Shown piece by piece: positions 11,089 to 64,000 of a DNA stretch of 64,000 nt. The stretch lies in the NCBI GenBank assembly GCA_964465395.1, contig CAYXIN010000001.1:5065-69064 (forward strand), read 5' to 3'. Below the pieces are notes generated by a model, which was given only the letters and a program-made list of their open reading frames with translations, was not told the origin of the DNA and made no database searches. The position numbers were made by a program, and so were the translations under genes. Each line of letters opens with the position of its first letter. Position 1 is the first letter of the stretch. This DNA is from an uncultured Oscillospiraceae bacterium (GTDB lineage Bacteria > Bacillota > Clostridia > Oscillospirales > Oscillospiraceae).

Positions 11089-11110
11089 ATCCTCAACCGC
11101 ATATGTTACC

Positions 11111-11206
11111 CTTCTTCGGGGGGCCGGTGACTTCCGGCTGAGATTGGGCGAGCTGACGCCCTGACCCGCGAACCTGATACGGTCCATACCGTCGTAGGAA
11201 AAGATG
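11111..11206 (+). ncRNA. TPP (THI-box) riboswitch
   Basis: Conserved GGGG...GCTGAGA...ACCCGCGAACCTGAT.CGG.CCATACCG.CGTAGGAA core upstream of a thiamine transporter. Confidence 0.93.
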
Positions 11207-11274
11207 GAACTTTCCGCTTTGCTTTCCGAGAACGGTCGCATTGCGGATTTTTTACATTGTGGAGGTCAACCCAA

Positions 11275-51212: not shown

Positions 51213-52289
51213 TCAATATTCCTGAACGGTTTCCTGACCGCGCAGCACGCGCAGCGCGCCCTGCGCCAGCGCCAGCATCTCGTCCTCGCCGGGGTAGACA
51301 TGGACGGGGGCCAGGAACTCCACATTCTCGCGAATCCAGCCCATCAGCACGGCGTCATAGGCAAAGCCGCCCGTCAGGAGGATGGCATCCACCTGGCCAT
51401 GCAGCGGCGCGGCCAGCGCGCAGATTTCCTTGGAAACCTGGTAGGCCATGGAGCGGTAGGCCAGCTCCGCCTGCTTGTCGCCGGCGGCGATGCGGCGGGT
51501 GATCTCGCGGCCATCGTTGGTGCCGGTGTGACCGACCAGGCCGCTCTTCATGCACAGCTCATGGCGGATTTCTTCATAGGTATGACCCCACTGGCCGCTC
51601 AGCGTGCCGCGCACGACATCCAGCGCTGCCAGCGTGCCGCAGCGCTCACCGGTGAAGGCGCCCTCGCCCTCAAGCCCGTTGTTGACATCGACCACGCGGC
51701 CCTTGCGGTGGCAGCCGACGGAGGTACCGCCGCCCATGTGGGCGACGATCAGGTTCAGGCTGTCATAGGGACGGCCGGTTTCCTCGGCAAAGCGCTTGGC
51801 AATGGCCTTCTGGTTCAGCGCATGGAACAGCGCGCGGCGGGGGAAATCCGGATGGCCGGAAAGCCGGGCCACCTCATCCTTCTCATAGACCACGGGGGGA
51901 TCGACCACATAGGCAGGCTTGCCCAGCTCTGCGCCGATCTCGGCGGCCAGAATGCCGCCCAGGTTGCAGACATGGAAGCCATAGTTGCAGCTATGCAGAT
52001 CCGCAAGCATCCGCTCGTTGACGGCATAGGTGCCGCCGGGGATGGGACGGATCAGACCGCCGCGGCCGACAATGGCATCCAGAGAGGCCATGTCAATCCC
52101 CTCCTCGCGCAGCGCGGCAAGAATCAGCGGCTTGCGGAAGCGGGCGTTATCCTCCATGGTTTTGATATTCTTCATTTCCTCGGGGCCATGGCGGAAGACG
52201 CGCTGCACCACCTCATGATCGCCGTCATAGACGGCCATCTTGGTGGAGGTGGAGCCAAAATTCATAGTCAATACACGATATTCCTTCAT
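51213..52289 (-). CDS. buk: Butyrate/branched-chain acyl kinase
   Basis: NFGSTSTK, GRGGL, VVDPPV, HALNQKA, HMGGGTSV, PGEDEM.AL. Confidence 0.95.
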   Translation of the reverse strand: MKEYRVLTMNFGSTSTKMAVYDGDHEVVQRVFRHGPEEMKNIKTMEDNARFRKPLILAALREEGIDMASLDAIVGRGGLIRPIPGGTYAVNERMLADLHSCNYGFHVCNLGGILAAEIGAELGKPAYVVDPPVVYEKDEVARLSGHPDFPRRALFHALNQKAIAKRFAEETGRPYDSLNLIVAHMGGGTSVGCHRKGRVVDVNNGLEGEGAFTGERCGTLAALDVVRGTLSGQWGHTYEEIRHELCMKSGLVGHTGTNDGREITRRIAAGDKQAELAYRSMAYQVSKEICALAAPLHGQVDAILLTGGFAYDAVLMGWIRENVEFLAPVHVYPGEDEMLALAQGALRVLRGQETVQEY

Positions 52290-53403: not shown

Positions 53404-54018
53404 TCACGCCAAGAAATCCCCCGCTGCGCCGCGCAAAAGCGGCTGGAGCTGCCGCCCCTCCAGCGCCGCCTCCAACGCCTGCGGCAGCGCGCGGAAATCG
53501 GCCACCAGACTGGCGGGCTTCGCCACAGGGTCATCCTGCCCAAAGGGGACAAAATAGTAGTTGCGCCGGTTCAGCAGACGCCCCAGATTCTCCGCGCTGC
53601 CGGCCAGCGCGTCGTTGCTCGACACGGCCAGCAGCACCGGCCGGCCATTGCGTAGATGCGCCTTGACCGCAAAGGTAACGGCGCTGTCGGCAATGCCGGC
53701 GGCCAGCTTGCCGAGGGTATTGCCGGTGCAGGGGGCAACAATGAGCGCATCCAGCAGCCGCTTCGGCCCCAGCGGCTCAACCTCCTGAAGCTGCGTCAGC
53801 GCCCGGCAGCCGCACAGCGCCTCCACCCGCGCGCGAAAGGACTGCGCCGTGCCAAAGCGCGTGTCGCAGGTAGCGGCGGCCTGCGACAGAATCGGCAGCA
53901 GCGCGCAGCGCTCCCGCAACGGCTCGACTGCCTCCAGCACCCGCGCAAGCGTACAGAAGGAGCCGCACAGCGCCAGACCGACACGCGGCCGTTCCGCTGT
54001 AGTCCGCGCCCCACTCAC
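53404..54018 (-). CDS. spoVFB: Dipicolinate synthase subunit B
   Basis: GLALCGSFCT, TRFG, APCTGNTLGK, AVSSNDAL, YYFVPFGQDDP..KP.SL; GTG start overlaps the spoVFA stop. Confidence 0.93.
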   Translation of the reverse strand: MSGARTTAERPRVGLALCGSFCTLARVLEAVEPLRERCALLPILSQAAATCDTRFGTAQSFRARVEALCGCRALTQLQEVEPLGPKRLLDALIVAPCTGNTLGKLAAGIADSAVTFAVKAHLRNGRPVLLAVSSNDALAGSAENLGRLLNRRNYYFVPFGQDDPVAKPASLVADFRALPQALEAALEGRQLQPLLRGAAGDFLA

Positions 54019-54836
54019 AGGACGCCCTCCAGCCGCATAAGCTGCAAAACGCTCTGCACGTAGCACACACCGGCGCTCTGCGGCGCCCAGTCCCCCGGCA
54101 GCCCCGGCGCATACAGGGTCGTCAGGCCCAGTGCCTTGCAGACCTCGCGGTCAAAGCCGCCCGGCGCAGAGGCCAGCTCCAGCAGCACGCACTGCGGCGG
54201 AAGCTGCCGAAGCTGCTCCGGCGAGAGCACCGGCGCGGGCACGGTGTTAAAAACCAGCGCATAGCGCGCAAGCCCGGCGGCATATTCGCCCGTCTTAGTC
54301 GCCTCCAGCCCCAGCGCCTGCGCCAGCGCGCGGTCACCCGCCTGCCGCGCGGCAACCGTCACCGTGGCACCCAGTGCCCGCAGCTTCAGCGCCAGCAGCT
54401 TGCCGATGCGCCCAAAGCCGATGACCAGACAGGGCAGCTCCGGCAGAAGGCGCGGCGTGGCGCGCAACGCCAGGGCAATGGCTCCCTCGGCTGTCGCAGC
54501 AGCACTGACGCTGCGCAGCGGCTCCGTTCCCCACAGATCGCGCACCTGCGCCCCCTGCGCGCGCAGCCGCGCCGCCCAGGGGCCAAGCAGCCCGCCATAG
54601 ACCCGGCTGTCAGCATTGAACAGGGGCAGAAGCGACTCCAGCGGCAGCGCCCGCTGCCCACGCAGGCAGTCGCCGCTGACCGCCGGACAGGGCAGCACAG
54701 CCACCTGCACATGCGCCGGAAGGGGCGCATCCTCCATACCCGGCACACCATGCGTCTGCACGCGGCAGTCCGCCAGGCGAAGCTGCTGCGCCGCCGCCCG
54801 GCTGCGCGCATCGCCGCCCAATACCCAGATTTCCAT
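54015..54836 (-). CDS. spoVFA: Dipicolinate synthase subunit A
   Basis: VLGGDAR, ATAEGAI, VIGFGRIG, FNTVP, LASAPGG, APGLPG. Confidence 0.9.
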   Translation of the reverse strand: MEIWVLGGDARSRAAAQQLRLADCRVQTHGVPGMEDAPLPAHVQVAVLPCPAVSGDCLRGQRALPLESLLPLFNADSRVYGGLLGPWAARLRAQGAQVRDLWGTEPLRSVSAAATAEGAIALALRATPRLLPELPCLVIGFGRIGKLLALKLRALGATVTVAARQAGDRALAQALGLEATKTGEYAAGLARYALVFNTVPAPVLSPEQLRQLPPQCVLLELASAPGGFDREVCKALGLTTLYAPGLPGDWAPQSAGVCYVQSVLQLMRLEGVL

Positions 54837-54858
54837 ATGACCACCATCCCTTCTCGCC

Positions 54859-54886
54859 ATAGTATGCAAATTTCTTCCGGCCTGTG
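54859..54886 (-). promoter_or_regulatory. SigK-type promoter of spoVFAB
   Basis: Minus strand CACA-N16-CATACTAT matches the SigK consensus (AC-N16/17-CATAnnnT); spoVF is a known SigK target. Confidence 0.7.
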
Positions 54887-54894
54887 AAAAGCGG

Positions 54895-54923
54895 TTGCCA
54901 AACCGCGCCGCCTGCGCTATAAT
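54895..54923 (+). promoter_or_regulatory. SigA promoter of the DUF4364 gene
   Basis: TTGCCA-N17-TATAAT. Confidence 0.65.
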
Positions 54924-54955
54924 CATAGGAAAAAGAAAAAGAGAGGCGAAGCGCA

Positions 54956-55501
54956 ATGGAGGGACGCGGCTTTATCCGCGATATGCTGGACGTCAAGCTG
55001 CTGGTTTTATATATTATGGCGCGGGTGCTCTATCCCGTGGATTTGCAAAAGCTTTACGAGCTGGCCTATCAGGATGACTGCCTGAGCTATTTTGATCTGG
55101 CGCAGGCCGTGCCGCAGATGGTGGAGTCCGGGCACCTTGAGCTGCTGGAGGACGGCTGCTACGCCATCACCGCGCATGGCCGCGAGGCCGAGACGGTCAC
55201 GGAGGACGCCGTGGCCTTCCCCGTGCGCCAGCGCGCGCAGGCCGCCGTGGAACGCTACAACCGCGAGCGGCACCGCAGCGGCTACGTCAAAACCGCCGTC
55301 GTTCCGCGCGAGGGCGGCGACTTTGCCGTGCGCCTGAGTCTGAATGATGAGGTCAGCGACCTGCTGCGGCTGGAGCTGATGGCTCCGACCCAGCGGCAGG
55401 CCTATCGCCTGGCTCACGCCTTTGCCCAGTGCGCCGAGAGCCTCTACCGCAGCATTATGGATCAGCTCCTGCTTGAGCCGCAGGAGGAGAACGCACAGTA
55501 A
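54956..55501 (+). CDS. DUF4364 family winged-helix protein
   Basis: KLLVLYIM..YFDLAQA..Y.IT..GRE..L.L..PT..QA pattern. Confidence 0.8.
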   Translation: MEGRGFIRDMLDVKLLVLYIMARVLYPVDLQKLYELAYQDDCLSYFDLAQAVPQMVESGHLELLEDGCYAITAHGREAETVTEDAVAFPVRQRAQAAVERYNRERHRSGYVKTAVVPREGGDFAVRLSLNDEVSDLLRLELMAPTQRQAYRLAHAFAQCAESLYRSIMDQLLLEPQEENAQ

Positions 55502-55521
55502 CGCGTCCATTAACAGAACAT

Positions 55522-55556
55522 TTCCCCGCCGGTTTTCTCCGGCGGGGAATTTTTTT
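55522..55556 (+). terminator. Intrinsic terminator separating DUF4364 from the phage-like operon
   Basis: TTCCCCGCCGG-TTTTCT-CCGGCGGGGAA followed by T7. Confidence 0.85.
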
Positions 55557-55569
55557 GCGATTTTTTGCA

Positions 55570-55597
55570 AAAAATTGCACGTTTTGATGCAATTTTT
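55570..55597. promoter_or_regulatory. Palindromic candidate operator upstream of terS
   Basis: AAAAATTGCA-N8-TGCAATTTTT; a second AAAAWTGCACG repeat lies 28 bp downstream of the first. Confidence 0.45.
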
Positions 55598-55632
55598 AAA
55601 AAATGCACGCTACGGGTAAAGGAGTGATTTTT

Positions 55633-56061
55633 ATGACGACAGATAAACGCCGCTTTGCGGCAGCGTGGCTGCGTTCCTTCGACCCGCAGCAGGCCGCGCA
55701 GGAGGTCGGCGGCGATGACGGCATCCGCCTGCTGACCACGCCGGGTGTGCAGCGTGAAATTGCCCTGCAACGGGCGCAGTTTGAGCTGCGGCGCGAGGAT
55801 GTGCTGCGCCAGCTTGCGCGGCTGGCCTTCGGCCGCGCCAACGACTGCGTGAAGCTGGCGCTCTGCGAAACGGCAGCCCTCGACACGCTGGAGCTGAGTC
55901 TGCTGACGGAAATCCGGCGCAACGAGAAGGGCACGGTGGAAATCCGTCTGCTCGATCGGCTGGCCGCCCTGCGGCTGCTGCTGGAGGCATGCAGCGCCGC
56001 GCCCGACTGCGCACAGGCCTTCTTTGCCGCCTGCACGGATGAGGACGGGGAGGCCAGTTGA
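55633..56061 (+). CDS. Terminase small subunit-like protein
   Basis: Immediately upstream of and coupled to terL; EDVLRQLARLAF..EIRR..KGTVEIRLLDRLAALRLL resembles the Terminase_2 C-terminus; AAAGGAG RBS. Confidence 0.6.
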   Translation: MTTDKRRFAAAWLRSFDPQQAAQEVGGDDGIRLLTTPGVQREIALQRAQFELRREDVLRQLARLAFGRANDCVKLALCETAALDTLELSLLTEIRRNEKGTVEIRLLDRLAALRLLLEACSAAPDCAQAFFAACTDEDGEAS

Positions 56062-57329
56062 AATTCTCCGCAAAGCAGAAAACGGTGCTGAGCTGGTGGC
56101 GCCCCGGCGGGCGCTACGCGCAGCGGGAGGCCATCATCTGCGACGGGGCGGTGCGCTCGGGCAAGACGCTGTGCATGGGGCTGAGCTTCTTTCTCTGGGC
56201 CTCAAGCTGCTTCCACGGCGCGCGCTTCGGACTGTGCGGCAAGACCATCGCCTCGCTGCGGCGCAATGTGCTGACGGAGCTGCTGCCAAAGCTGCGGGCG
56301 CTGGGCTTCGGCATCCGGGAAAAGCGGACGGAAAATCTGGTGCAGCTCAGCTACGGCGGGCACAGCAACGACTTCTACCTCTTTGGCGGGCGCGACGAGG
56401 GCTCGGCCGGGCTGATTCAGGGCATCACCTTCGCCGGGGTACTGCTTGACGAGGTGGCACTGATGCCGCGCAGCTTCGTCGAGCAGGCCTGCGCCCGCTG
56501 CTCGGTCAGCGGCAGCCGCCTCTGGTTCAACTGCAACCCGGAGGGGCCGCACCACTGGTTCTACACGGAGTGGATCTGCAACGCACAGGCGCGCAACTGC
56601 CTGTATCTACACTTCACGATGGAGGACAATCCCTCGCTCAGCCCCGCCATCCGTGCGCGCTACGCGCGGCTGTACAGCGGAGTGTTCTATCGTCGCTTTA
56701 TTCTGGGGCAATGGGTGGCGGCCCAGGGACGCGTCTACGACTTCTTCGACGCGGCGCAGGCACCGCCCCCGCCTGCGGACGGCTTCACACAATGGTACAT
56801 CTCCTGCGACTACGGCACGGTGAATCCCGCCTCCTTCGGGCTCTGGGGTCTGCGGGAGGGGGTCTGGTACCGTGTGTGGGAGTTTTACTTCGATTCCCGG
56901 CGCGAGCAGCGGCAGATGACGGACGCGGAATATGCCGACGCGCTGGCGCGGCTGGCCGGCACGCGCCCGGTCACGGCGGTGATTGTCGATCCCTCGGCGG
57001 CCAGCTTCATCGAGGTACTGCGGCGGCGCGGGTGGCCGGTGCGCAAAGCCGACAACGATGTGCTCGGCGGCATCCGCCGCACAGCAGACCTGCTCAAGAG
57101 CGGGCGGCTGGTGATCTGCGACACCTGCGCCGACTGTCTGCGCGAGATGGAGGAATACGTCTGGGATCCGCGCAACGGGCACGAGTGCGTGAAAAAGGAG
57201 CACGACCACGCGATGGACGACATGCGCTACTTCGCCAGCACCGTGCTGGGCGCGGCCGGGCCGTCCTTCGCCGTGCGCGGCGTGGAGCGGACGCAGGCAG
57301 CCGGATCTTATCCCACGGAAAGGAGGTGA
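56058..57329 (+). CDS. Terminase large subunit (PBSX-like family)
   Basis: Walker A DGAVRSGKT; Walker B VLLDEVAL; NCNPEGPHHW; nuclease SCDYGTVNP, VDPSAASF, DHAMDDMRY. Confidence 0.93.
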   Translation: MKFSAKQKTVLSWWRPGGRYAQREAIICDGAVRSGKTLCMGLSFFLWASSCFHGARFGLCGKTIASLRRNVLTELLPKLRALGFGIREKRTENLVQLSYGGHSNDFYLFGGRDEGSAGLIQGITFAGVLLDEVALMPRSFVEQACARCSVSGSRLWFNCNPEGPHHWFYTEWICNAQARNCLYLHFTMEDNPSLSPAIRARYARLYSGVFYRRFILGQWVAAQGRVYDFFDAAQAPPPPADGFTQWYISCDYGTVNPASFGLWGLREGVWYRVWEFYFDSRREQRQMTDAEYADALARLAGTRPVTAVIVDPSAASFIEVLRRRGWPVRKADNDVLGGIRRTADLLKSGRLVICDTCADCLREMEEYVWDPRNGHECVKKEHDHAMDDMRYFASTVLGAAGPSFAVRGVERTQAAGSYPTERR

Positions 57330-57334
57330 ATGCA

Positions 57335-58519
57335 ATGTTGAAAAAGCTGAAACGAAAAACCGACTCCCCCGCGCAGGCGACCGCCACACAGCTCCGCCTG
57401 GGACAGCAGCATCCCTTTCACGCGCTGCGCAGCTACCTGCCCCTGGGCGGCAACGAGGCGCGGCTCTACCGCGAGCTGCGCGAAAGCCTGCCGATTCTGG
57501 ACGCAGCCATCGGCAAGCTGGTGCGGCTGACGGGCGGCTTCTGCGTGCGCTGCGGCGACGCGGCGCGGGAGCGCGCGCTGGCGGATTTCCTGCGCACGGT
57601 GCCCTGCGGACGCGGTCAGCAGGGCATTGGCAGCTTTCTGACATCCTATCTGGACAGTCTGCTGACCTATGGGCGCGCGGTCGGAGAGCTGGTGGTGGCC
57701 GACGGCGAGCTCGTGGGGCTCTGCTGGGGCGACGTCACGCAGGTTCACATCTGCGAGGGCGCCAGTCCGCTGGATTTCACGCTCTGCGCCTACAACGCAG
57801 GCGGCGTGCTGCGGCCGCTGCCCTGGCAGCATTTGCTGCTGCTGACGACGCTGAATCCGGAGCCGGCGAATCCCTATGGCGTGTCGCTGCTGCGCGGGAT
57901 GCCCTTTCTGGGAGAGATTCTGCTGAAAATCTACCAGACCATTGGCGTCAACTGGGAGCGGGCGGGCAACGTGCGCTACGCGGTGGTCTGCCGCCCCGGC
58001 CCCGGCAGCGAAAATGCCGCCGGACAGGTGGAGGCCATCGCCGGTGAATGGGCTGCGGCGATGCAGGACGGCAAGCAGGGCGTGGTGCGCGATTTTGTCG
58101 CCGTCGGTGACGTGAGCGTGCGCGTCATCGGCGCCGACGGGCAGATTCTCGAATCCGAGGTGCCGGTGCGCCAGCTTCTCGAGCAGCTCATCGCCAAAAC
58201 CGGTCTGCCGCCCTTCCTGCTGGGACTGAACTGGTCGAGCACGGAGCGCATGAGCCGCCAGCAGACCGATCTGCTGACGAGCGAAATCTGGGCGCTGCGG
58301 CGCGCGGTGGAGCCGGTGCTGGAGCGAATCTGCACCTTCTGGCTCCAGACGCAGGGCTGCGGGCGCAGGCCGGAAATCGTCTGGGATGACATCACGCTAC
58401 AGGACATGGTGGAGGAGGCGCAGGCCGCGCTCTACCACGCGCAGGCGGCAGCGCTGGCACAGCCGTCCTGCGGCACGCAGCACAGCGCTGCCAGCACAGA
58501 ACAAACGGAAAGGATGTGA
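57335..58519 (+). CDS. Portal protein
   Basis: 394 aa, directly after terL; LPILDAAIGKLVRL, PYGVSLLRG, LEQLIAKTGLPPFLLG; AAGGAGG RBS. Confidence 0.78.
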   Translation: MLKKLKRKTDSPAQATATQLRLGQQHPFHALRSYLPLGGNEARLYRELRESLPILDAAIGKLVRLTGGFCVRCGDAARERALADFLRTVPCGRGQQGIGSFLTSYLDSLLTYGRAVGELVVADGELVGLCWGDVTQVHICEGASPLDFTLCAYNAGGVLRPLPWQHLLLLTTLNPEPANPYGVSLLRGMPFLGEILLKIYQTIGVNWERAGNVRYAVVCRPGPGSENAAGQVEAIAGEWAAAMQDGKQGVVRDFVAVGDVSVRVIGADGQILESEVPVRQLLEQLIAKTGLPPFLLGLNWSSTERMSRQQTDLLTSEIWALRRAVEPVLERICTFWLQTQGCGRRPEIVWDDITLQDMVEEAQAALYHAQAAALAQPSCGTQHSAASTEQTERM

Positions 58520-59433
58520 TCTTTTTGGAGATCAGCAAGGCGGCACAGGTCGCTGCGGCGGGAACCCCCAGCGCGGCGCAGCTCGCCGCCATCAACAGCT
58601 ACGCCAAGTCGCCCCTGACAGCGCAGCAGGTCTACTGCTTCAGCGTCCGGCTGTGCGACGATCAGCCGGACAGAGACCACGAGCGCTTCGACACGGCAGC
58701 ACTGCCGCGTCTGGCGGCGCTGTTCCGGGGCAAAACCGGCATCACGGATCACGACTGGTCAGCCGGGGGCCAGGTCGCGCGCATTTTTGACACGCAGGTG
58801 TGCCGCGAGGAGGGCGTGAGCTTTATCCGCGCGTGGTGCTACATGCTGCGCATACCGGAGCACGCCGCCCTGATCGAGCAGATCGAGGGCGGCATTCGCA
58901 GAGAGGTCTCCGTCGGCTGCGCGATGGGGCTGTCGCGCTGCTCCATCTGCGGCAGCATCTACGGCACCTGCGCCCACCGCAAGGGCGCGCTCTACGACGG
59001 GCAGCTCTGTCTGGCCGTGCTGTCCGAGCCGGTGGATGCCTACGAATTCTCCTTCGTAGCCGTCCCCGCGCAGCGCGAGGCCGGGGTGATGAAGGCGCTG
59101 CGGGAGCCTGCGGCGCAAACGCTGGAGGAGCTGGTGCTGCGCAAGGGCAGCCCGGCTCTGAGTGAGCGCCTGCGGGCACTGGAGGCGGAGGCCGCCTTTG
59201 GTCGCGAGAGCCGCCTGGAGCTGGAGCAGGAGGTGGTGCGCCTCGGTCTGCTGCTGGATTTCGGCGCGGATGAGGACGTGCTGCGCGCCACGGCCGCCGC
59301 GCTGGAGGGCGTCCAGCTCCGACAGCTTCGCACGGCGATGGCACACAAGGCCGCAGGGCTCTGGCCCGCGCGCACACAGCTCCCGGCGCAGGGCCGGGAG
59401 GCAGAGCCGCTTGACGCGGCGTTTTTAATTTAA
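58516..59433 (+). CDS. Prohead protease-scaffold fusion with Cys/His insertion
   Basis: DHDW, REVSVG and YEFSFVAVPAQ resemble the HK97-type protease His/Ser/E-S-V-xx-PA motifs; CSICG..CAH insert; helical C-terminus. Confidence 0.62.
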   Translation: MIFLEISKAAQVAAAGTPSAAQLAAINSYAKSPLTAQQVYCFSVRLCDDQPDRDHERFDTAALPRLAALFRGKTGITDHDWSAGGQVARIFDTQVCREEGVSFIRAWCYMLRIPEHAALIEQIEGGIRREVSVGCAMGLSRCSICGSIYGTCAHRKGALYDGQLCLAVLSEPVDAYEFSFVAVPAQREAGVMKALREPAAQTLEELVLRKGSPALSERLRALEAEAAFGRESRLELEQEVVRLGLLLDFGADEDVLRATAAALEGVQLRQLRTAMAHKAAGLWPARTQLPAQGREAEPLDAAFLI

Positions 59434-59465
59434 CCGCAAAAAAATGAACGGAGGTCAATGAAAAA

Positions 59466-59807
59466 ATGGCAACTGCATACAACTCCATTGCGCAGGAATG
59501 CGCAAGCTTTGCCGTCAGCGGCAATCTGATCGAGGGTGAGCCCTGCAAGATGTCCACTGACAGAACGGTAGCCCTCTGCGCCTCGAACAACGATTTCATC
59601 GGCGTGGTGCAGCATGTGCGCAACAAGGTCGCCACGGTCGCCGTGCGCGGCTTTGTCACGGTGCCCTACAGCGGCACAGCGCCGACCGTGGGTCGCGTGG
59701 CGCTGGTCGCCAACGGCAGCCACGGCGTGATGGTCGGGGAGAGCGGCACGGTGCGCACCGTAGTCTGCCGCGACCTGAGCAAGAAAACTGTCACTTTTCT
59801 GATGTAA
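59466..59807 (+). CDS. Capsid decoration/cement-like protein
   Basis: 113 aa, beta-rich, between protease and capsid; FIGVV..V.V.VRGFVTV pattern. Confidence 0.5.
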   Translation: MATAYNSIAQECASFAVSGNLIEGEPCKMSTDRTVALCASNNDFIGVVQHVRNKVATVAVRGFVTVPYSGTAPTVGRVALVANGSHGVMVGESGTVRTVVCRDLSKKTVTFLM

Positions 59808-59823
59808 GCAGGAGGTTTGTGAA

Positions 59824-60849
59824 ATGAGCTACGAAAGCATTCGCCTGGAAAAAGGCATGTACCGCCAGAGCGGAAAAACCTTTGCACAGGTACTTGAGGG
59901 ACTCGATCCCTCCGAAAATTATCACGGCACAGCGCTGGAGGGCACGGACGCCTTCCAGCGCCAGCTCAAGCGCTTCGGCATCCGCGCCAAAGGCCCCGGC
60001 TCCGACACGGTTGAGAAATTCTTCGCCACCACGGATTCGGCGGTGCTGTTCCCGGAATTTATTTCCCGCGTGGTGCGGCAGGGCATGGATGAGGCCGATC
60101 TGCTCTCGCGCCTGTGCGCGACGGTGACAAGCATCGACGCCATGGACTACCGCAGCATTTATTCCGTCCCAACCGAGGAGGAGAAAAAGCCCATGGATGT
60201 GGGCGAGGGCGCGGCGCTGCCCGCTGCGGTGATCCGCACGCGGGAGCACCTTGTGCAGCTCAAAAAGCGCGGCCGCCTGCTGACGGCCAGCTACGAGGCG
60301 CTGCGCTTCCAGAAGCTGGATCTGTTCTCCGTCATGCTGCGGCAGATGGGCGCGGCAATCCAGAAAACGCTGGTCAGCGACGCAGTGGAGGTGCTGATCT
60401 CCGGTGACGGCAACAGCAACGCCGCCGCGACCTACCGCATCGGCACCAGCCCGATGAGCGGTACCTCCGGCACGCTGACCTACGCGCAGCTTGTGGAATT
60501 CTGGGCCAGCTTCTCGCCCTATGAGATGAACACGCTCGTGCTGAGCGCGCCGACCACGGTGAAGCTGTTACAGCTTCCGGAAATGCAGAATCCTGCCGCC
60601 GGGCTGGATTTCCAGGGCAGCGGCAGGCTGATTACGCCGCTGGGCGCGCAGATTCTGCGCACCGACGCCATCTCTGACGGGCGCATTCTGGCTCTTGACC
60701 GCCGCTTTGCGCTGGAAATGGTGCAGGCCGGGGAGGTCAGCGTCGAATTCGACAAGCTCATCGACCGCCAGATGGAAATGGCGGCCATCACGAGCATCTG
60801 CGGCTTCAGCAAAATCTGCAACGAGGCCACGGCCGTGCTGACGATCTGA
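59824..60849 (+). CDS. Major capsid protein (HK97 fold)
   Basis: 341 aa; VLFPEFISRVVRQG, VGEGAALP, VQLKKRGRLL.ASYEALR..LDLF...MG..I, typical of the HK97 E-loop and backbone helix. Confidence 0.85.
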   Translation: MSYESIRLEKGMYRQSGKTFAQVLEGLDPSENYHGTALEGTDAFQRQLKRFGIRAKGPGSDTVEKFFATTDSAVLFPEFISRVVRQGMDEADLLSRLCATVTSIDAMDYRSIYSVPTEEEKKPMDVGEGAALPAAVIRTREHLVQLKKRGRLLTASYEALRFQKLDLFSVMLRQMGAAIQKTLVSDAVEVLISGDGNSNAAATYRIGTSPMSGTSGTLTYAQLVEFWASFSPYEMNTLVLSAPTTVKLLQLPEMQNPAAGLDFQGSGRLITPLGAQILRTDAISDGRILALDRRFALEMVQAGEVSVEFDKLIDRQMEMAAITSICGFSKICNEATAVLTI

Positions 60850-60850
60850 G

Positions 60851-61192
60851 ATGTCCGGGGAAATCTACAGCCGCGCGCTGACGCTGCTGGGCGGCACGCT
60901 GAGCAACGAGGAGCAGGCGCTCCTGCGCGATGTCTGCGCCGCGGTTCAGCGGATGCTGACCCAGACGCTTCGCGCGGGCGTGACGCCGGAGGATTGCAGT
61001 GAGCCCTTCTCGGTCGCGGCGGCGCTGCTGGCGGCTGAGGTCACGCGCAGCCCCATGCGCGACGGGCTGCAAATCTTTGACGCGGGCACCATGCGGCTGC
61101 ATTTTGCCGACGGCCCGGCGGGAAAGCTGGCGCGGCAGCTTCTTGCGCCCTGGCTGGACGGCGGTGTCTGCTTCCGGAGCGTGGCGACATGA
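60851..61192 (+). CDS. Head-tail connector (adaptor)-like protein
   Basis: 113 aa, helical, directly after the capsid gene; LLAPWLD C-terminal motif. Confidence 0.55.
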   Translation: MSGEIYSRALTLLGGTLSNEEQALLRDVCAAVQRMLTQTLRAGVTPEDCSEPFSVAAALLAAEVTRSPMRDGLQIFDAGTMRLHFADGPAGKLARQLLAPWLDGGVCFRSVAT

Positions 61193-61530
61193 AGGCGCTG
61201 ATTGCAAGGCTGCTGACCGCCTACGGCTCGACGGTCACGGTGCATTTTGAGCAGGAGAGCCGCGCGGTGCGGGCGCTGCTTCAGCCCGTTACCTCAAAAA
61301 GCTGGCAGAATATGGAGCGCATGATCCCCGTGGGAGGCCAGATCCCGCGGGGACAATTCCTCTATATCGGCCCGCCGGAGGTGGACGTGACGCAGGCCAC
61401 GCATCTGAGTCTGCTGGGAAAGACCTACCTCGTGCGCCGGGTAGACCGGATTCTCTACCGCGATCAGGTGCTTTATCTCTGGGGACTTCTGGTGGAAGGA
61501 GGGCGTGAGGATCCATGGAGCGAATCCTGA
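61189..61530 (+). CDS. Head closure (stopper)-like protein
   Basis: 113 aa, beta-rich; RALLQPV..FLYIGP..YLV.RV..YLWG; position after the adaptor. Confidence 0.5.
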   Translation: MKALIARLLTAYGSTVTVHFEQESRAVRALLQPVTSKSWQNMERMIPVGGQIPRGQFLYIGPPEVDVTQATHLSLLGKTYLVRRVDRILYRDQVLYLWGLLVEGGREDPWSES

Positions 61531-61946
61531 GCGCGCTGACCCAACGCCTGCGCAGCGCCGGGCTGCATGTGACGCGCGACGACCCGAATCAGACCCTGCC
61601 GCGGCTGAAGCTGCCGATGCTGGCGCTGCGCGCAGAGGGCGCGCAGCGGCGCTCCCTGGCGCCGGGCGACCTGCTGGCCGGGCACTACAGCTCCGGCACG
61701 ACCACCGGGAAGGAGCTGACGCTGACGGTGCAGCTTGTGGTCTACTCGCCCTACCGCAGCGGCGAGCAGCTCTGCGAGGACGCTGTGTCACAGAGCCTTC
61801 TGGCGCTCGACGGCGGCCTGCAAAACGCCAATCTCCTGGCGCTGCGCTGCGGGCCGATTGCCTACGACCCTGACGCGGACTGCTACTGCTGCCGGATTCA
61901 GGCGGAGCTGCGCGCCTGGGATGTGACCTTCACCGCCGCGCAGTGA
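61515..61946 (+). CDS. Tail terminator-like protein
   Basis: 143 aa; LTVQLVVYSP...YD.DADCY.CRIQ pattern of SPP1 gp17/lambda gpU-like proteins; position. Confidence 0.5.
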   Translation: MERILSALTQRLRSAGLHVTRDDPNQTLPRLKLPMLALRAEGAQRRSLAPGDLLAGHYSSGTTTGKELTLTVQLVVYSPYRSGEQLCEDAVSQSLLALDGGLQNANLLALRCGPIAYDPDADCYCCRIQAELRAWDVTFTAAQ

Positions 61947-61956
61947 AAATACAAAG

Positions 61957-61984
61957 GGCGGTACGGGTGCAGACCCGTACCGCC
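61957..61984 (+). other. Strong GC-rich intra-operon hairpin without U-tract
   Basis: GGCGGTACGGGT-GCAG-ACCCGTACCGCC, a perfect 12-bp stem. Confidence 0.7.
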
Positions 61985-62001
61985 GGAAAGGATGAGATCC
62001 G

Positions 62002-62394
62002 ATGTCACTTATCCCGGTTCAGACGGGATTTCAGCTTTTTTACGACAGCATTGAGCTGGCCGGATTACAAAGCTATGAGCTGCGGCTGTTGCAGCAGGTG
62101 CGCCGCGTGGAGCAGGTTGGGCACAACCTGCCGGACAAGCTGCTCTACGGCGGCTACTCTTATCAGCTCACCGTGCGGCGGCTGCTGCCGGACACGCCGG
62201 AGGCACCGACCTGGCCCCTGGCACGCACGGAAAGTCCCTTCACGATGCGCATTCGTCGCCAACGGCGGGAGGACACGCTTGAGGGCTGTATGTTGCTGTC
62301 GCTGACGGAGCGCTGCGAGCACAACGGCTGCGCCGTCGAGGAGATGGTCTGCCTGGCGCGGACGCTGCGCTCGGCGCTGGTCAGCACAGCGTAA
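62002..62394 (+). CDS. Tail tube-like protein
   Basis: 130 aa; AGLQSYEL..YQLTVRRL..FTMRI..LEGC..EEM.C.A beta-strand pattern of short tube proteins; weak call. Confidence 0.4.
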   Translation: MSLIPVQTGFQLFYDSIELAGLQSYELRLLQQVRRVEQVGHNLPDKLLYGGYSYQLTVRRLLPDTPEAPTWPLARTESPFTMRIRRQRREDTLEGCMLLSLTERCEHNGCAVEEMVCLARTLRSALVSTA

Positions 62395-62408
62395 GGAGGT
62401 GAGAGCAG

Positions 62409-62729
62409 ATGCAATTCGGAAGCTTCCTCTGGCCCAACGAGCCGTCACACCTGCGATGCAGCTACCGCCGCCTGCTGCAAAGTCAGAGCGGCGTCTGGAG
62501 CCTGAGTGACCAGGGCTACGGCGGCTGCACCGTTGTGGCCGAGGGCGATTTTTACACAAGCGGCAGCGCAACCGCGCTGGAGGCGCTGTTCCGCACGGGC
62601 GGCGCGCTGACGCTGCGGCTGCCGAACGCGGGCAGCTTCACGGCGCGCTTCACCGCCCTGACGCTGGAACAGGAGCCGGTGGCCGGCTGCATACACTACA
62701 CGGCAACCTTTCAGGAGACGCCCGCCTGA
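62409..62729 (+). CDS. Tube-initiator / DNA-circularisation-N-like protein
   Basis: 106 aa; F.WPNEP..QG.GG.TV.AEGDF..L..LF..L.LP..Y.ATFQE resembles Mu gpN/DNA_circ_N-type hub proteins; weak call. Confidence 0.4.
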   Translation: MQFGSFLWPNEPSHLRCSYRRLLQSQSGVWSLSDQGYGGCTVVAEGDFYTSGSATALEALFRTGGALTLRLPNAGSFTARFTALTLEQEPVAGCIHYTATFQETPA

Positions 62730-62739
62730 GGGCGTGCCC

Positions 62740-63225
62740 TCAGCCCTCTGCCGGACGCGGCCAGCGCTTCGGCACGGGGTTTTCCCGCAGACGGCGGAAA
62801 AAATCCCGGAGGGCCTGCCCGCACTGCGCCTCCAGCACGCCGCCGGAGACCTGCGGGCGGTGATTGTAGGGCAGGGCAAACAGATCGGTCAGCGTGCCGC
62901 AGGAGCCGGCCTTCGGGTCGCGGGCGCCATAGACCACGCGGGGAATGCGGGCATTGATGATGGCCCCGGCGCACATGGGGCAGGGCTCCAGCGTGACATA
63001 GAGCGTGCAGCGCCACAGGCGCCAGCCGCCCAGCGTCCGGCAGGCCATGTCAATGGCCTCCAGTTCCGCGTGCGCCAGCGCGTTTTTCCCCGCCTCGCGG
63101 CGGTTGCGGCCCCAGCCGACGGCGCGCTCACCATCGACAATGACACAGCCGACGGGCACCTCACCCGCCTGCGCCGCCTCCTGCGCCAACTCCAGCGCGC
63201 GGGCCATCCATTCCTGATCCGTCAT
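62740..63225 (-). CDS. tadA: tRNA-specific adenosine deaminase
   Basis: GEVPVGCVIV, AHAELEAI, YVTLEPCPMCAGAI, YGARDPKAG. Confidence 0.95.
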   Translation of the reverse strand: MTDQEWMARALELAQEAAQAGEVPVGCVIVDGERAVGWGRNRREAGKNALAHAELEAIDMACRTLGGWRLWRCTLYVTLEPCPMCAGAIINARIPRVVYGARDPKAGSCGTLTDLFALPYNHRPQVSGGVLEAQCGQALRDFFRRLRENPVPKRWPRPAEG

Positions 63226-63403: not shown

Positions 63404-63565
63404 ATGATGAGGGAGTTTCAGCCGACAGACTGGTGTGCGCTGTGCGGCATTGAGCTTTACGCCGGCTCATACTGCTACCGCGTCGAGGGCCGCCGGATCT
63501 GTCCGGCTTGTCTGGCCGCCTACGCACGCGTGCTGCTGCGGGAGGCACGGGAGGTTGTGCCATGA
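63404..63565 (+). CDS. 53-aa zinc-finger protein (not in the ORF track)
   Basis: Manual translation MMREFQPTDWCALCGIELYAGSYCYRVEGRRICPACLAAYARVLLREAREVVP; AAAGGAG RBS; stop overlaps the next ATG (ATGA). Confidence 0.75.
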   Translation: MMREFQPTDWCALCGIELYAGSYCYRVEGRRICPACLAAYARVLLREAREVVP

Positions 63566-63795
63566 AGCTGAGTGAGCTGTCCCTGGGCTATCTGGTAGCC
63601 GCAGAACAGCTTCGGCACAATCTGCGCACCCTGCGCCGGGAGCTGCGCTGTTGTCAGGACCCCTGCCGCCGCGCCGTGCTGCGCCATCAGATTGCGCGGC
63701 TGGCACGCATCCTGACGCAGTGCCGGGAGCTGGCGGAGCTGACCGCCCATTACTACGAGAGGAGCTATTTCCGCAGTGAAAAATATACACTTTGA
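63562..63795 (+). CDS. Small helical hypothetical protein (77 aa)
   Basis: GGAGG RBS; coupled to both neighbours; MKLSELSLGY..YYERSYFRSEKYTL. Confidence 0.7.
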   Translation: MKLSELSLGYLVAAEQLRHNLRTLRRELRCCQDPCRRAVLRHQIARLARILTQCRELAELTAHYYERSYFRSEKYTL

Positions 63796-64000
63796 TGAGT
63801 ATTGCGACCTGCGTCTGCCGCCCCAGCTTCAGCTTCGGCGCGTGCAGAACGTGATCGACCAGGAGCTTTCGCGCAAGCAGCGGGAGGTGCTGCTCGCTGT
63901 GTATTTCGAGCGAAAAAGTCAGGTGGAGATCGCGCGGGAGCGCGGCGTCTGCCCCTCGACGGTTCATCGCACCCTGCGCCGCGCGGAGGATCGGCTGCGT
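63776..64000 (+). CDS. Stand-alone sigma70 region-4-type HTH protein (partial, runs off the window)
   Basis: GTG start with GAGGAG RBS; manual translation includes ELSRKQREVLLAVYFERKSQVEIARERGVCPSTVHRTLRRAEDRLR. Confidence 0.8.
   Translation, partial: MKNIHFDEYCDLRLPPQLQLRRVQNVIDQELSRKQREVLLAVYFERKSQVEIARERGVCPSTVHRTLRRAEDRLR

Follow-up and report, generated by a model that had tools for sequence, protein, structure and literature searches.

A reduced, phage-derived capsid operon held in the chromosomes of gut Oscillospiraceae: a candidate gene transfer agent-like element

Results

Location and surroundings of the operon

The 64 000-nucleotide stretch of DNA studied here, to which we refer as the window, comes from an uncultured Oscillospiraceae bacterium (GenBank assembly GCA_964465395.1, contig CAYXIN010000001.1), and our subject is a compact phage-derived operon within it, at positions 55633–62729, where 11 open reading frames (ORFs), all on the + strand, span 7.1 kb. 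A first-pass annotation, made by reading the window without database searches, had described 11 co-oriented ORFs with overlapping junctions and good Shine–Dalgarno sites; all 11 were found where it had placed them, four junctions overlap (terS/terL, portal/g4, g7/g8 and g8/g9) and AGGAG-type sites are present at most starts. It was also right that the operon resembles its host in composition, the GC content at third codon positions being 0.83 ± 0.04 in the cluster and 0.79 ± 0.03 in 25 host genes of the window, and that housekeeping genes lie on either side: ptb, buk, spoVFB, spoVFA and a DUF4364 gene on the 5′ side and tadA, which is convergent, 3′ of the operon across a gap of 10 nt. The intrinsic terminator of the DUF4364 gene (55522–55556, + strand; an 11-bp stem with nine GC pairs, and a T-run) insulates the operon from read-through and marks its left boundary, and in three gut metagenomes the read depth of the cluster equals that of its flanks.

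An integrase, a regulator and genes for replication, lysis, sheath, tape measure and baseplate are all lacking at the locus, and no homologue of the sheath, baseplate and holin genes of its relatives was detected across the 64 kb window. Around the cluster there are no convincing att-like flanking direct repeats. The claim that mobility and replication genes, a tRNA target and att repeats are lacking is thus upheld by gene content and by the tRNA and repeat searches, and the contiguous lysogeny, replication, tail and lysis modules of an intact temperate prophage are absent from the 7.1 kb between the terminator and tadA. The sole ARAGORN call, a tRNA-Thr(TGT) of 96 nt at 51442–51537 (+ strand), lies inside overlapping long ORFs near buk, 4 kb off, and is probably false.

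‘Joints’ in Logan contigs, including one from 53762 to 62749, rest on overlaps of ~21 nt and were taken as assembly-graph artefacts rather than excision. The joint between 53762 and 62749, from one metagenome (X2), skips 8986 bases, from inside spoVFB to the end of tadA, and has 21 nt of support on one side; its right end (62749) falls near the right boundary of the operon.

Packaging and head genes

The first gene, terS (55633–56061, + strand as for all genes of the operon), lies 8 nt downstream of the Shine–Dalgarno sequence AAGGAG and encodes a small terminase subunit of 142 aa that matches PF03592 over positions 1–127 of 141 (E = 2.8e-8) and phrog_51. The large subunit, TerL (56058–57329; 423 aa), has Terminase_6N and Terminase_6C domains and belongs to the PBSX family of large terminases, scoring 163 bits against TIGR01547 (‘PBSX family’; cut-off, 105); its ATPase and nuclease motifs are present, with GAVRSGKT as Walker A and VLLDE as Walker B in the translation. 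The portal protein (57335–58519; 394 aa) matches phrog_30703 (E = 3.1e-143) and, weakly, Portal_Mu (E = 0.0045).

The gene that follows, g4 (58516–59433; 305 aa), matches phrog_16951, a family of unknown function (E = 2.6e-90). Its alignment has invariant columns at His79, at Ser132 and at four cysteines, possibly a zinc site, and its C-terminal region is helical; position, invariant residues and helical C-terminus together make it a putative prohead protease plus scaffold. The small virion structural protein g5 (59466–59807; 113 aa; phrog_4588, E = 9e-21) is missing from many relatives of the type B described below, and its putative role, decoration or scaffold-like, is assigned by position only. 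The major capsid protein (MCP; 59824–60849; 341 aa) is of the HK97 type, with matches to PF25209 (E = 5.6e-16) and phrog_3922 (E = 3.9e-98).

Neck and tail-side genes

Two neck proteins of 113 aa each follow the capsid gene. The first, g7 (60851–61192), a head–tail adaptor by position, stands directly after the MCP gene in all three architectures of the family and has no Pfam, PHROG or PDB match. The second, g8 (61189–61530), a head-closure or stopper protein by position, gave no match in a PDB profile search; its position is conserved across relatives, and its ratio of nonsynonymous to synonymous substitution rates (dN/dS) is 0.11 in the closely related pair of loci L019/L020. The names ‘protease/scaffold’, ‘decoration’, ‘adaptor’ and ‘stopper’ that had been given to g4, g5, g7 and g8 therefore fit the gene order, the identities being a matter of position only.

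The last three genes had been called terminator-like, tube-like and hub-like, and these labels hold approximately, as terminator-like, tube fold and tube-initiator-like. The product of g9 (61515–61946; 143 aa) has its homologue immediately 5′ of the sheath gene in full-length (type C) relatives. A PDB profile search with g9 gave no meaningful match, and the best Foldseek matches of its predicted model are a phage neck component (9lbn_K), lambda gpU, a monocin cap, the Mu terminator and T5 p142 (E-values from 6e-3 to 5e-2); on synteny and these weak matches, it may tentatively be regarded as terminator-like.

The case for g10 (62002–62394; 130 aa) as a tail-tube-fold protein comes from homology and modelling. 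Over its full length it aligns with the gene that comes next after the sheath gene in type C; its family profile finds the tail tube 8q01 in the PDB (E = 0.012); and its AlphaFold model, built from four sequences with a predicted local distance difference test score (pLDDT) of 68, is matched by Foldseek with probability 1.0 and E ~ 1e-4 to the tubes of the Photorhabdus virulence cassette (PVC), the antifeeding prophage (AFP), phage 812, Mu and Hcp. The alignment behind this model was shallow because g10 alone found only four proteins in a search of 5.8 billion proteins, and a concatenated g9+g10+g11 query against the same collection returned none. The type A copies of g10, that of the window among them, are 17–28% identical to other family members, except for the closest relative of the window (L087), and are far more diverged than the type C copies are among themselves.

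The final gene, g11 (62409–62729; 106 aa), is homologous to the DNA_circ_N N-domain of a Mu gp43-like protein and is tube-initiator-like. In its family, 35 of the 44 members match PF07157 (the N-terminus of Mu gp43) and 18 long members also have LysM; the window copy by itself has no PF07157 match and consists of the N-domain only, the C-terminal LysM domain of its relatives being missing. In the PDB, g11 matches chains described as ‘tail tube initiator’ and baseplate centrepiece weakly. Profile–profile comparison found no relationship of g10 to either g9 or g11.

Three architectures and the reduction of the tail

In order to place the operon among its relatives, the ORFs of 92 loci were clustered and representatives were annotated with Pfam, which yielded three architectures that track host genera. 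The full-length form, type C, measures 12.2–13.0 kb (n = 17; terS through the final baseplate gene) and encodes the head plus a Mu-like contractile tail, in the order MCP–g7–g8–g9–sheath–g10–c17–c25–g11(LysM)–hub–gp46–BaseplateJ–gp48, with a gp44-like hub. After the sheath and tube genes this is exactly the order of the Mu-like tail module (the gp43 DNA-circularization/LysM protein, the gp44 hub, gp46, gp47 Baseplate_J and gp48), of which the window operon keeps only the tube and the gp43 N-domain (g11). The type C homologue of g11 has 172 aa and combines DNA_circ_N (PF07157) with LysM. Two small proteins of 203 and 165 aa, of which one has a zinc ribbon, occupy the tape-measure position, and the lack of a long tape-measure gene even in type C implies that the ancestral tail was very short.

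The full-length form is present in two cultured strains, Pseudoflavonifractor capillosus ATCC 29799 (locus L077, 5803–19693 of NZ_AAXG02000002.1) and Oscillibacter valericigenes An860 (L084). In P. capillosus the baseplate genes are followed by a CBM_5_12 protein and a holin, and immediately 5′ of the element are aroA, a metallo-β-lactamase hydrolase, rlmH and pgm; the gene immediately 3′ of it in O. valericigenes is GerA. Across Pseudoflavonifractor, Oscillibacter and Dysosmobacter the full-length form likewise lies between housekeeping genes, no integrase was seen beside the annotated type C loci, and the form carried by L077 and L084, under purifying selection, is itself a candidate GTA/PBSX-like element (GTA, gene transfer agent).

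Type A, the form found in the window, is 7064–7549 bp long (n = 9) and retains g9, g10 and g11. All 15 type A loci lack the sheath, the genes of the tape-measure region, the LysM domain and the baseplate, and 13 of them also lack the hub; the other two keep a hub-like gene (c13). In L007 (4912–6575) and in L093/L094 (from IMG/VR), a 395-aa protein of the c13 cluster follows g10, a match to the g11 family lies shortly before its start or extends across it, and these lineages look like an intermediate stage of tail reduction. Type B, the majority form, occurs in Faecousia and is 6491–6838 bp long. Here g9 and g10 are fused into one protein of 225–250 aa (for example, L090 11707–12384 and L022 6554–7294), in which hmmsearch places the g9 domain at ~5–110 and the g10 domain at ~115–230. 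After the fusion comes a short g11 or, in part of the loci, an unrelated protein of 150–180 aa. This protein, c30, stands in the g11 position in L045, L047, L049 and L090 (L090 12438–12980, with a 93-aa ORF next to it); it has no match to the hidden Markov model of the g11 family and is not a detectable g11 homologue.

A neighbour-joining tree of the MCP places type A and type B each in a clade of its own, with type C as a basal, paraphyletic assemblage. Within the 55-nt spacer between g9 and g10, at the place where type C relatives carry the sheath gene, the window has a palindromic hairpin (61957–61984, no strand assigned; a 12-bp stem with nine GC pairs), which may be a deletion scar, an element of mRNA processing or stability, or an attenuator. 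The operon had been described as an intact virion-morphogenesis operon, and in the sense of a complete particle system this does not stand, the sheath, tape-measure-region genes, LysM, hub, baseplate and holin of its relatives having been lost. Because these tail and lysis parts are gone, a GTA in the sense of RcGTA (the Rhodobacter capsulatus GTA) or of PBSX cannot be encoded here alone.

Size and distribution of the family

Public data hold at least 8000 homologues of the MCP, nearly all of the listed ones being exactly 341 aa long, and when one genome per species was scanned, at least 582 stretches that encode it came up. Faecousia, P. capillosus ATCC 29799, O. valericigenes and Dysosmobacter are some of the named carriers among the matches listed. 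IMG/VR contains 560 contigs with relatives; hardly any of the best 80 of these 560 exceeds 17 kb, and over the part that each contig covers they have the same mini-architectures. In the annotated phage collection there were only five unverified ‘Bacteriophage sp.’ scaffolds from human faeces (49–60% identity) and two cultured phages (25%), so that the element’s nearest relatives are something other than complete temperate phages. Complete temperate phages as nearest kin, pseudogenization and a dN/dS near 1 had been named by the first-pass annotation as findings that would speak against a domesticated element; none of the three was encountered.

One of the five scaffolds (L004; GenBank MT835508.1, 46.7 kb, human faeces, Mexico) has the compact cluster within host genes, preceded by ABC transporters and MarR, an arrangement shared with Faecousia loci. 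The explanation is either that host DNA flanking the cluster is encapsidated or that clusters of this kind lead host contigs to be filed as phage sequences. A tie between the MT835xxx scaffolds and a virus-like particle (VLP) study (PMC8361208) is plausible from the Mexican origin and the human faeces, and is unconfirmed in the text of that study.

Inheritance and selection

Synonymous divergence (dS) was compared between the element and the host genes beside it in four species pairs that share flanking genes: L019/L020, L022/L028, L012/L034 and the type C pair L076/L077. In L019/L020, the dS of the element is 0.12–0.23 and that of the host flanks 0.14–0.23; in L022/L028, the values are 0.15–0.29 (0.09 for g8) and 0.26–0.49, respectively; and in the remaining two pairs the dS of the element behaves in the same way. 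Every gene of the element has a dN/dS of 0.015–0.20 in L019/L020, the least saturated pair (g10, 0.20; g11, 0.14), which is comparable to the neighbouring housekeeping genes at unsaturated divergence. The element is complete in every relative whose sequence covers it, with all 11 genes full-length in essentially every type A locus. From the agreement in dS with the flanks and the low dN/dS, it follows that the element is vertically inherited and maintained, as had been proposed, and is not a decaying prophage.

The proposal of a fixed chromosomal anchor fared differently. When DUF4364, spoVFA/B, ptb, buk and tadA were sought by tblastn, none of 80 genome loci had any of these genes adjacent, and a neighbouring tadA is common only to the closest relative (82% MCP identity). 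Gene order around the element is shared only within sub-lineages: type A has RNase J, c53 and QueH for neighbours, and many type B loci lie among ABC transporters and MarR. One relative has RNase J, GdpP and DnaB on one side and tadA, rpiB, sigE and spoIIGA on the other; a second has methionyl-tRNA synthetase, ABC transporters and MarR on one side and SpoU, a major facilitator superfamily transporter and the his operon on the other. Among the 123 immediate neighbours of ~40 compact loci, which include ABC transporters, QueH, elongation factor G and similar genes, no integrase or recombinase family recurs.

A conserved hairpin upstream of terS

The leader of the operon contains a hairpin (55569–55598, + strand) with A-run and T-run arms and a core, TTGCAC-N6-ATGCAA at 55575–55592, that has one mismatch to the family consensus and ends 41 nt before the ATG of terS. 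This consensus, (G)TTGCAC-N6-GTGCAA(C), usually followed by a T-run, is found upstream of terS in all three types. Exact 12/12 matches occur in 19 loci, once per locus and always just upstream of terS, and matches of at least 10/12 in 56 of 73 loci, compared with 2% of random 300-nt windows. The outer stem covaries: 80% of its cells are paired, the figure for slid controls being ~40%, and it shows 91 double changes where shuffling gives 41 ± 6. The folding energies of the leaders of relatives lie between −15 and −19 kcal/mol (z from about −2.2 to about −2.9). No Rfam family came near threshold for the leader, none reached gathering level near the locus, and a sigma-70 promoter scan before terS found nothing convincing. 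On this pattern the hairpin is a candidate terminator/antiterminator target or operator and, together with the lack of a regulator gene, it suggests that control comes from outside the element.

Discussion

A proposed domesticated capsid with a stub tail

We consider it somewhat better than an even chance (a probability of roughly 0.55) that the operon is a host-fixed, non-mobile and selectively maintained phage-derived module, a domesticated stub-tail capsid that is GTA-like but tail-less. Small HK97-type capsids would be assembled and filled with DNA by a motor of TerS, the PBSX-type TerL and the portal, and the portal would then be closed by a minimal stack of the two neck proteins, a g9 terminator-like ring, a g10 tube-fold ring and a g11 initiator-like cap, to give a stub-tailed, effectively tail-less particle. 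The fusion of g9 to g10 in type B argues for such a 1 : 1 stack of rings and not for a growing tube. The operon and type B are the two reduced forms, each of ~7 kb, of a 12–14 kb ancestor in which the same head genes were joined to a short contractile tail of the Mu-like kind, with a holin as well in at least one strain. Control of expression probably comes from outside the element, by way of the leader hairpin before terS, and the most likely role would be that of a GTA-like (‘viriform’) DNA-packaging particle, released when a subpopulation lyses, with lysis, regulation and any delivery function supplied elsewhere. That host DNA is the cargo, and that it passes into another cell, is speculative; circumstantial support for such a cargo comes from the ~5.9 kb packaging in Onthomonas discussed below and from the faecal scaffold L004 with its host flanks.

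A number of observations weigh against this interpretation. Particles, packaged DNA and regulated expression are predictions made from the genes of the family, and the only RNA evidence consists of a few short metatranscriptome contigs at 95–99% identity. Neither the locus nor the 64 kb window has a gene for lysis, receptor binding, sheath, hub or baseplate. The proteins that should close the particle are the least well characterized, as g7 and g8 have no detectable relative of known function and the g9 model is a single-sequence prediction of low confidence (pLDDT 52.6); likewise, a PDB profile search with g4 gave no meaningful match, so that its protease role is not demonstrable. The dN/dS of g5, g7 and g9–g11 rises to 0.3–0.8 in distant pairs, in which dS is saturated. 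The AT-rich copy of the leader in the window folds weakly (−10.2 kcal/mol, z = −0.55), and the MCP tree is a neighbour-joining tree of a single gene. TerS keeps its N-terminal Terminase_2 region, and packaging may therefore start at a specific site rather than at random.

A more ambitious form of the same idea is that the family is the GTA of gut Oscillospiraceae, a new class whose members preserve the steps of tail loss. Their stub-tailed capsids would package short random pieces of host DNA, comparable in length to the ~5.9 kb fragments of Onthomonas, and this DNA would be passed on with no injection device, by uptake of released DNA or with borrowed tails, under a hairpin-based switch common to the family. 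We hold this only tentatively and think it the less probable version. In Onthomonas, also of the Oscillospiraceae, GTA-type packaging of host fragments with a main peak of ~5.9 kb has been reported with no locus identified (PMC12946183), and for Pelethomonas there is a GTA-type packaging signal without an assigned locus, a capsid-only element being noted (bioRxiv 10.64898/2026.07.08.737213); the present family is a candidate for this locus-less packaging.

Comparison with gene transfer agents and PBSX

RcGTA, of R. capsulatus and other Alphaproteobacteria, resembles the window operon: both are chromosomal head-to-tail clusters running from terS/terL, without integrase or replication genes, vertically inherited under purifying selection and, putatively in the case of the window operon, regulated from outside the cluster. 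The operon thus has the first two hallmarks of a GTA, a chromosome-fixed phage-like structural cluster without integration, excision and replication genes, and vertical inheritance with purifying selection; the third, a complete particle and lysis system, is present neither at the locus nor in the 64 kb window. RcGTA (~15 kb) has a full tail of the non-contractile kind, tape measure, hub and fibres included, whereas the window operon has only the terminator, tube and initiator homologues, and its ancestry is Mu/PBSX-like and contractile, in a Gram-positive anaerobe. The packaging of random ~4 kb pieces of host DNA and their transfer have been demonstrated for RcGTA, whereas the window element is a candidate for either.

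FpGTA, from Faecalibacterium prausnitzii, shares with the window operon its taxonomic order and habitat and a compact TerS–TerL–portal–scaffold–capsid operon amid host genes. It is podovirus-like, with a capsid annotated as N4-gp56, and has 10 ORFs in 10.5 kb plus a second operon for baseplate, fibre and lysis; its particles are capsids of ~40 nm without visible tails, holding ~8.5–9 kb of host DNA (PMC12946183). Compared through family models, the capsids differ: that of the window belongs to PF25209, in a family whose relatives have Mu-like contractile tails, and it gave no match to the NCBIfam N4-gp56 model at E ≤ 0.1. The difference in capsid family and the contractile-tailed relatives point to domestication independent of that of FpGTA. 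The first-pass annotation knew of no characterized GTA with this architecture in the lineage, which is overstated inasmuch as FpGTA and the Onthomonas and Pelethomonas signals are by now on record for the order; of this gene family our literature searches turned up no description.

Both RcGTA and FpGTA are themselves multi-locus (PMC12946183), and it is conceivable that the operon likewise holds the head genes of a fully tailed GTA or PBSX-like element whose sheath, baseplate, fibre and lysis genes have been relocated. The three genes kept at its end do encode tail-side proteins, and our inspection covered 64 kb of the genome. We nevertheless consider this explanation unlikely: no tail or holin homologue was found in the window or within ± 10 kb of any compact locus, the fusion of g9 to g10 in type B and the loss of LysM from g11 fit poorly with a normal tube polymerizing on a baseplate, and g10 has diverged far more in type A than among type C.

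PBSX of Bacillus subtilis has in common with the window operon the TerL family, and with type C the combination of a head with a contractile tail, the type C loci inspected having no adjacent integrase. It is a tailocin-like killer of ~28 kb with a full contractile tail, the regulators Xre and Xpf and a lysis cassette, whereas the window has no sheath, baseplate, regulator or lysis gene; in the family, the contractile tail genes (sheath and baseplate) are found in type C, and a holin in L077.

Comparison with capsid-forming satellites

Capsid-forming phage-inducible chromosomal islands (cf-PICIs) are, like the window element, small, and they too encode terminase, portal, protease-like, capsid and connector proteins of their own while lacking a functional tail, although g9–g11 are tail-side proteins that the operon has kept. 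On this content the operon could be a tail-stealer, making its own DNA-filled heads and taking tails from a co-resident myophage or a type C element. Similar capsid-only gut clusters have been described as ‘resembling capsid-forming satellites’ (PMC12946183; bioRxiv 10.64898/2026.07.08.737213), and the family itself includes relatives with compatible contractile tails. What speaks against this, and makes it in our opinion slightly less probable even than relocated tail genes, is that cf-PICIs have an integrase, a master repressor or AlpA, a replication module and att sites and move horizontally. The window element has none of these and co-diverges with its host instead of moving, and its retained terminator, tube and initiator, which are normally tail parts, would occupy the head–tail interface.

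Satellites with capsids of their own interfere with their helpers, as is established for PICIs. A capsid taken over for another purpose altogether might similarly serve against phages, by sequestering or mis-packaging the DNA of an invader or titrating the tails of a helper, or might release DNA for biofilms or as a nutrient. The terminase and portal are conserved, so that DNA packaging would be retained, and nothing at the locus mediates delivery; the neighbours, however, include no defence-type gene and show no linkage to defence islands, and we regard exaptation of this kind as improbable. Least credible by far, and already largely refuted, is an inert prophage remnant, stripped of its tail and lysogeny modules and kept by chance, for which it can be said that the element is clearly a reduced derivative of a larger one and that its function is read from genes, but which is at odds with the 11 full-length genes of essentially every type A locus, the dN/dS of 0.015–0.2 at unsaturated divergence (like the housekeeping neighbours), the at least 580 matches in species-representative genomes, the tight size ranges of types A (7064–7549 bp) and B (6491–6838 bp) and the conserved regulatory hairpin.

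Implications

The Oscillospiraceae are abundant and mostly uncultured gut bacteria in which long-read VLP and transductomics studies see the packaging of chromosomes, with the responsible genes unnamed. A capsid family with at least ~580 matches in species-representative genomes, purifying selection, no mobility genes and cultured carriers of the full-length form is a concrete and testable candidate, and the TTGCAC-N6-GTGCAA leader hairpin provides a handle on its regulation. The architectures form a natural series in which a particle is pared down under selection, from a contractile tail through the terminator–tube fusion to a stub, and this series bears on the relations among GTAs, tailocins and capsid-forming satellites. 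Such clusters are also routinely labelled ‘prophages’ or ‘viral contigs’, as in the 560 IMG/VR contigs and the ‘Bacteriophage sp.’ entries of GenBank, so that virome counts are inflated.

Other features of the window

Past tadA, at 63404–64000, there are three small ORFs on the + strand that encode a Cys-rich protein of 53 aa, a protein of 77 aa and a sigma-70 region-4-like helix-turn-helix protein, the last of which runs off the end of the window. As regulators of the element they were rejected, being shared only with the closest relative (L087, 13458–14066) and unlinked to the other clusters. At the other end of the window, a thiamine pyrophosphate (TPP) riboswitch (RF00059; 64.4 bits, above gathering) lies at 11107–11217 on the + strand, 5′ of an ORF of 192 aa.

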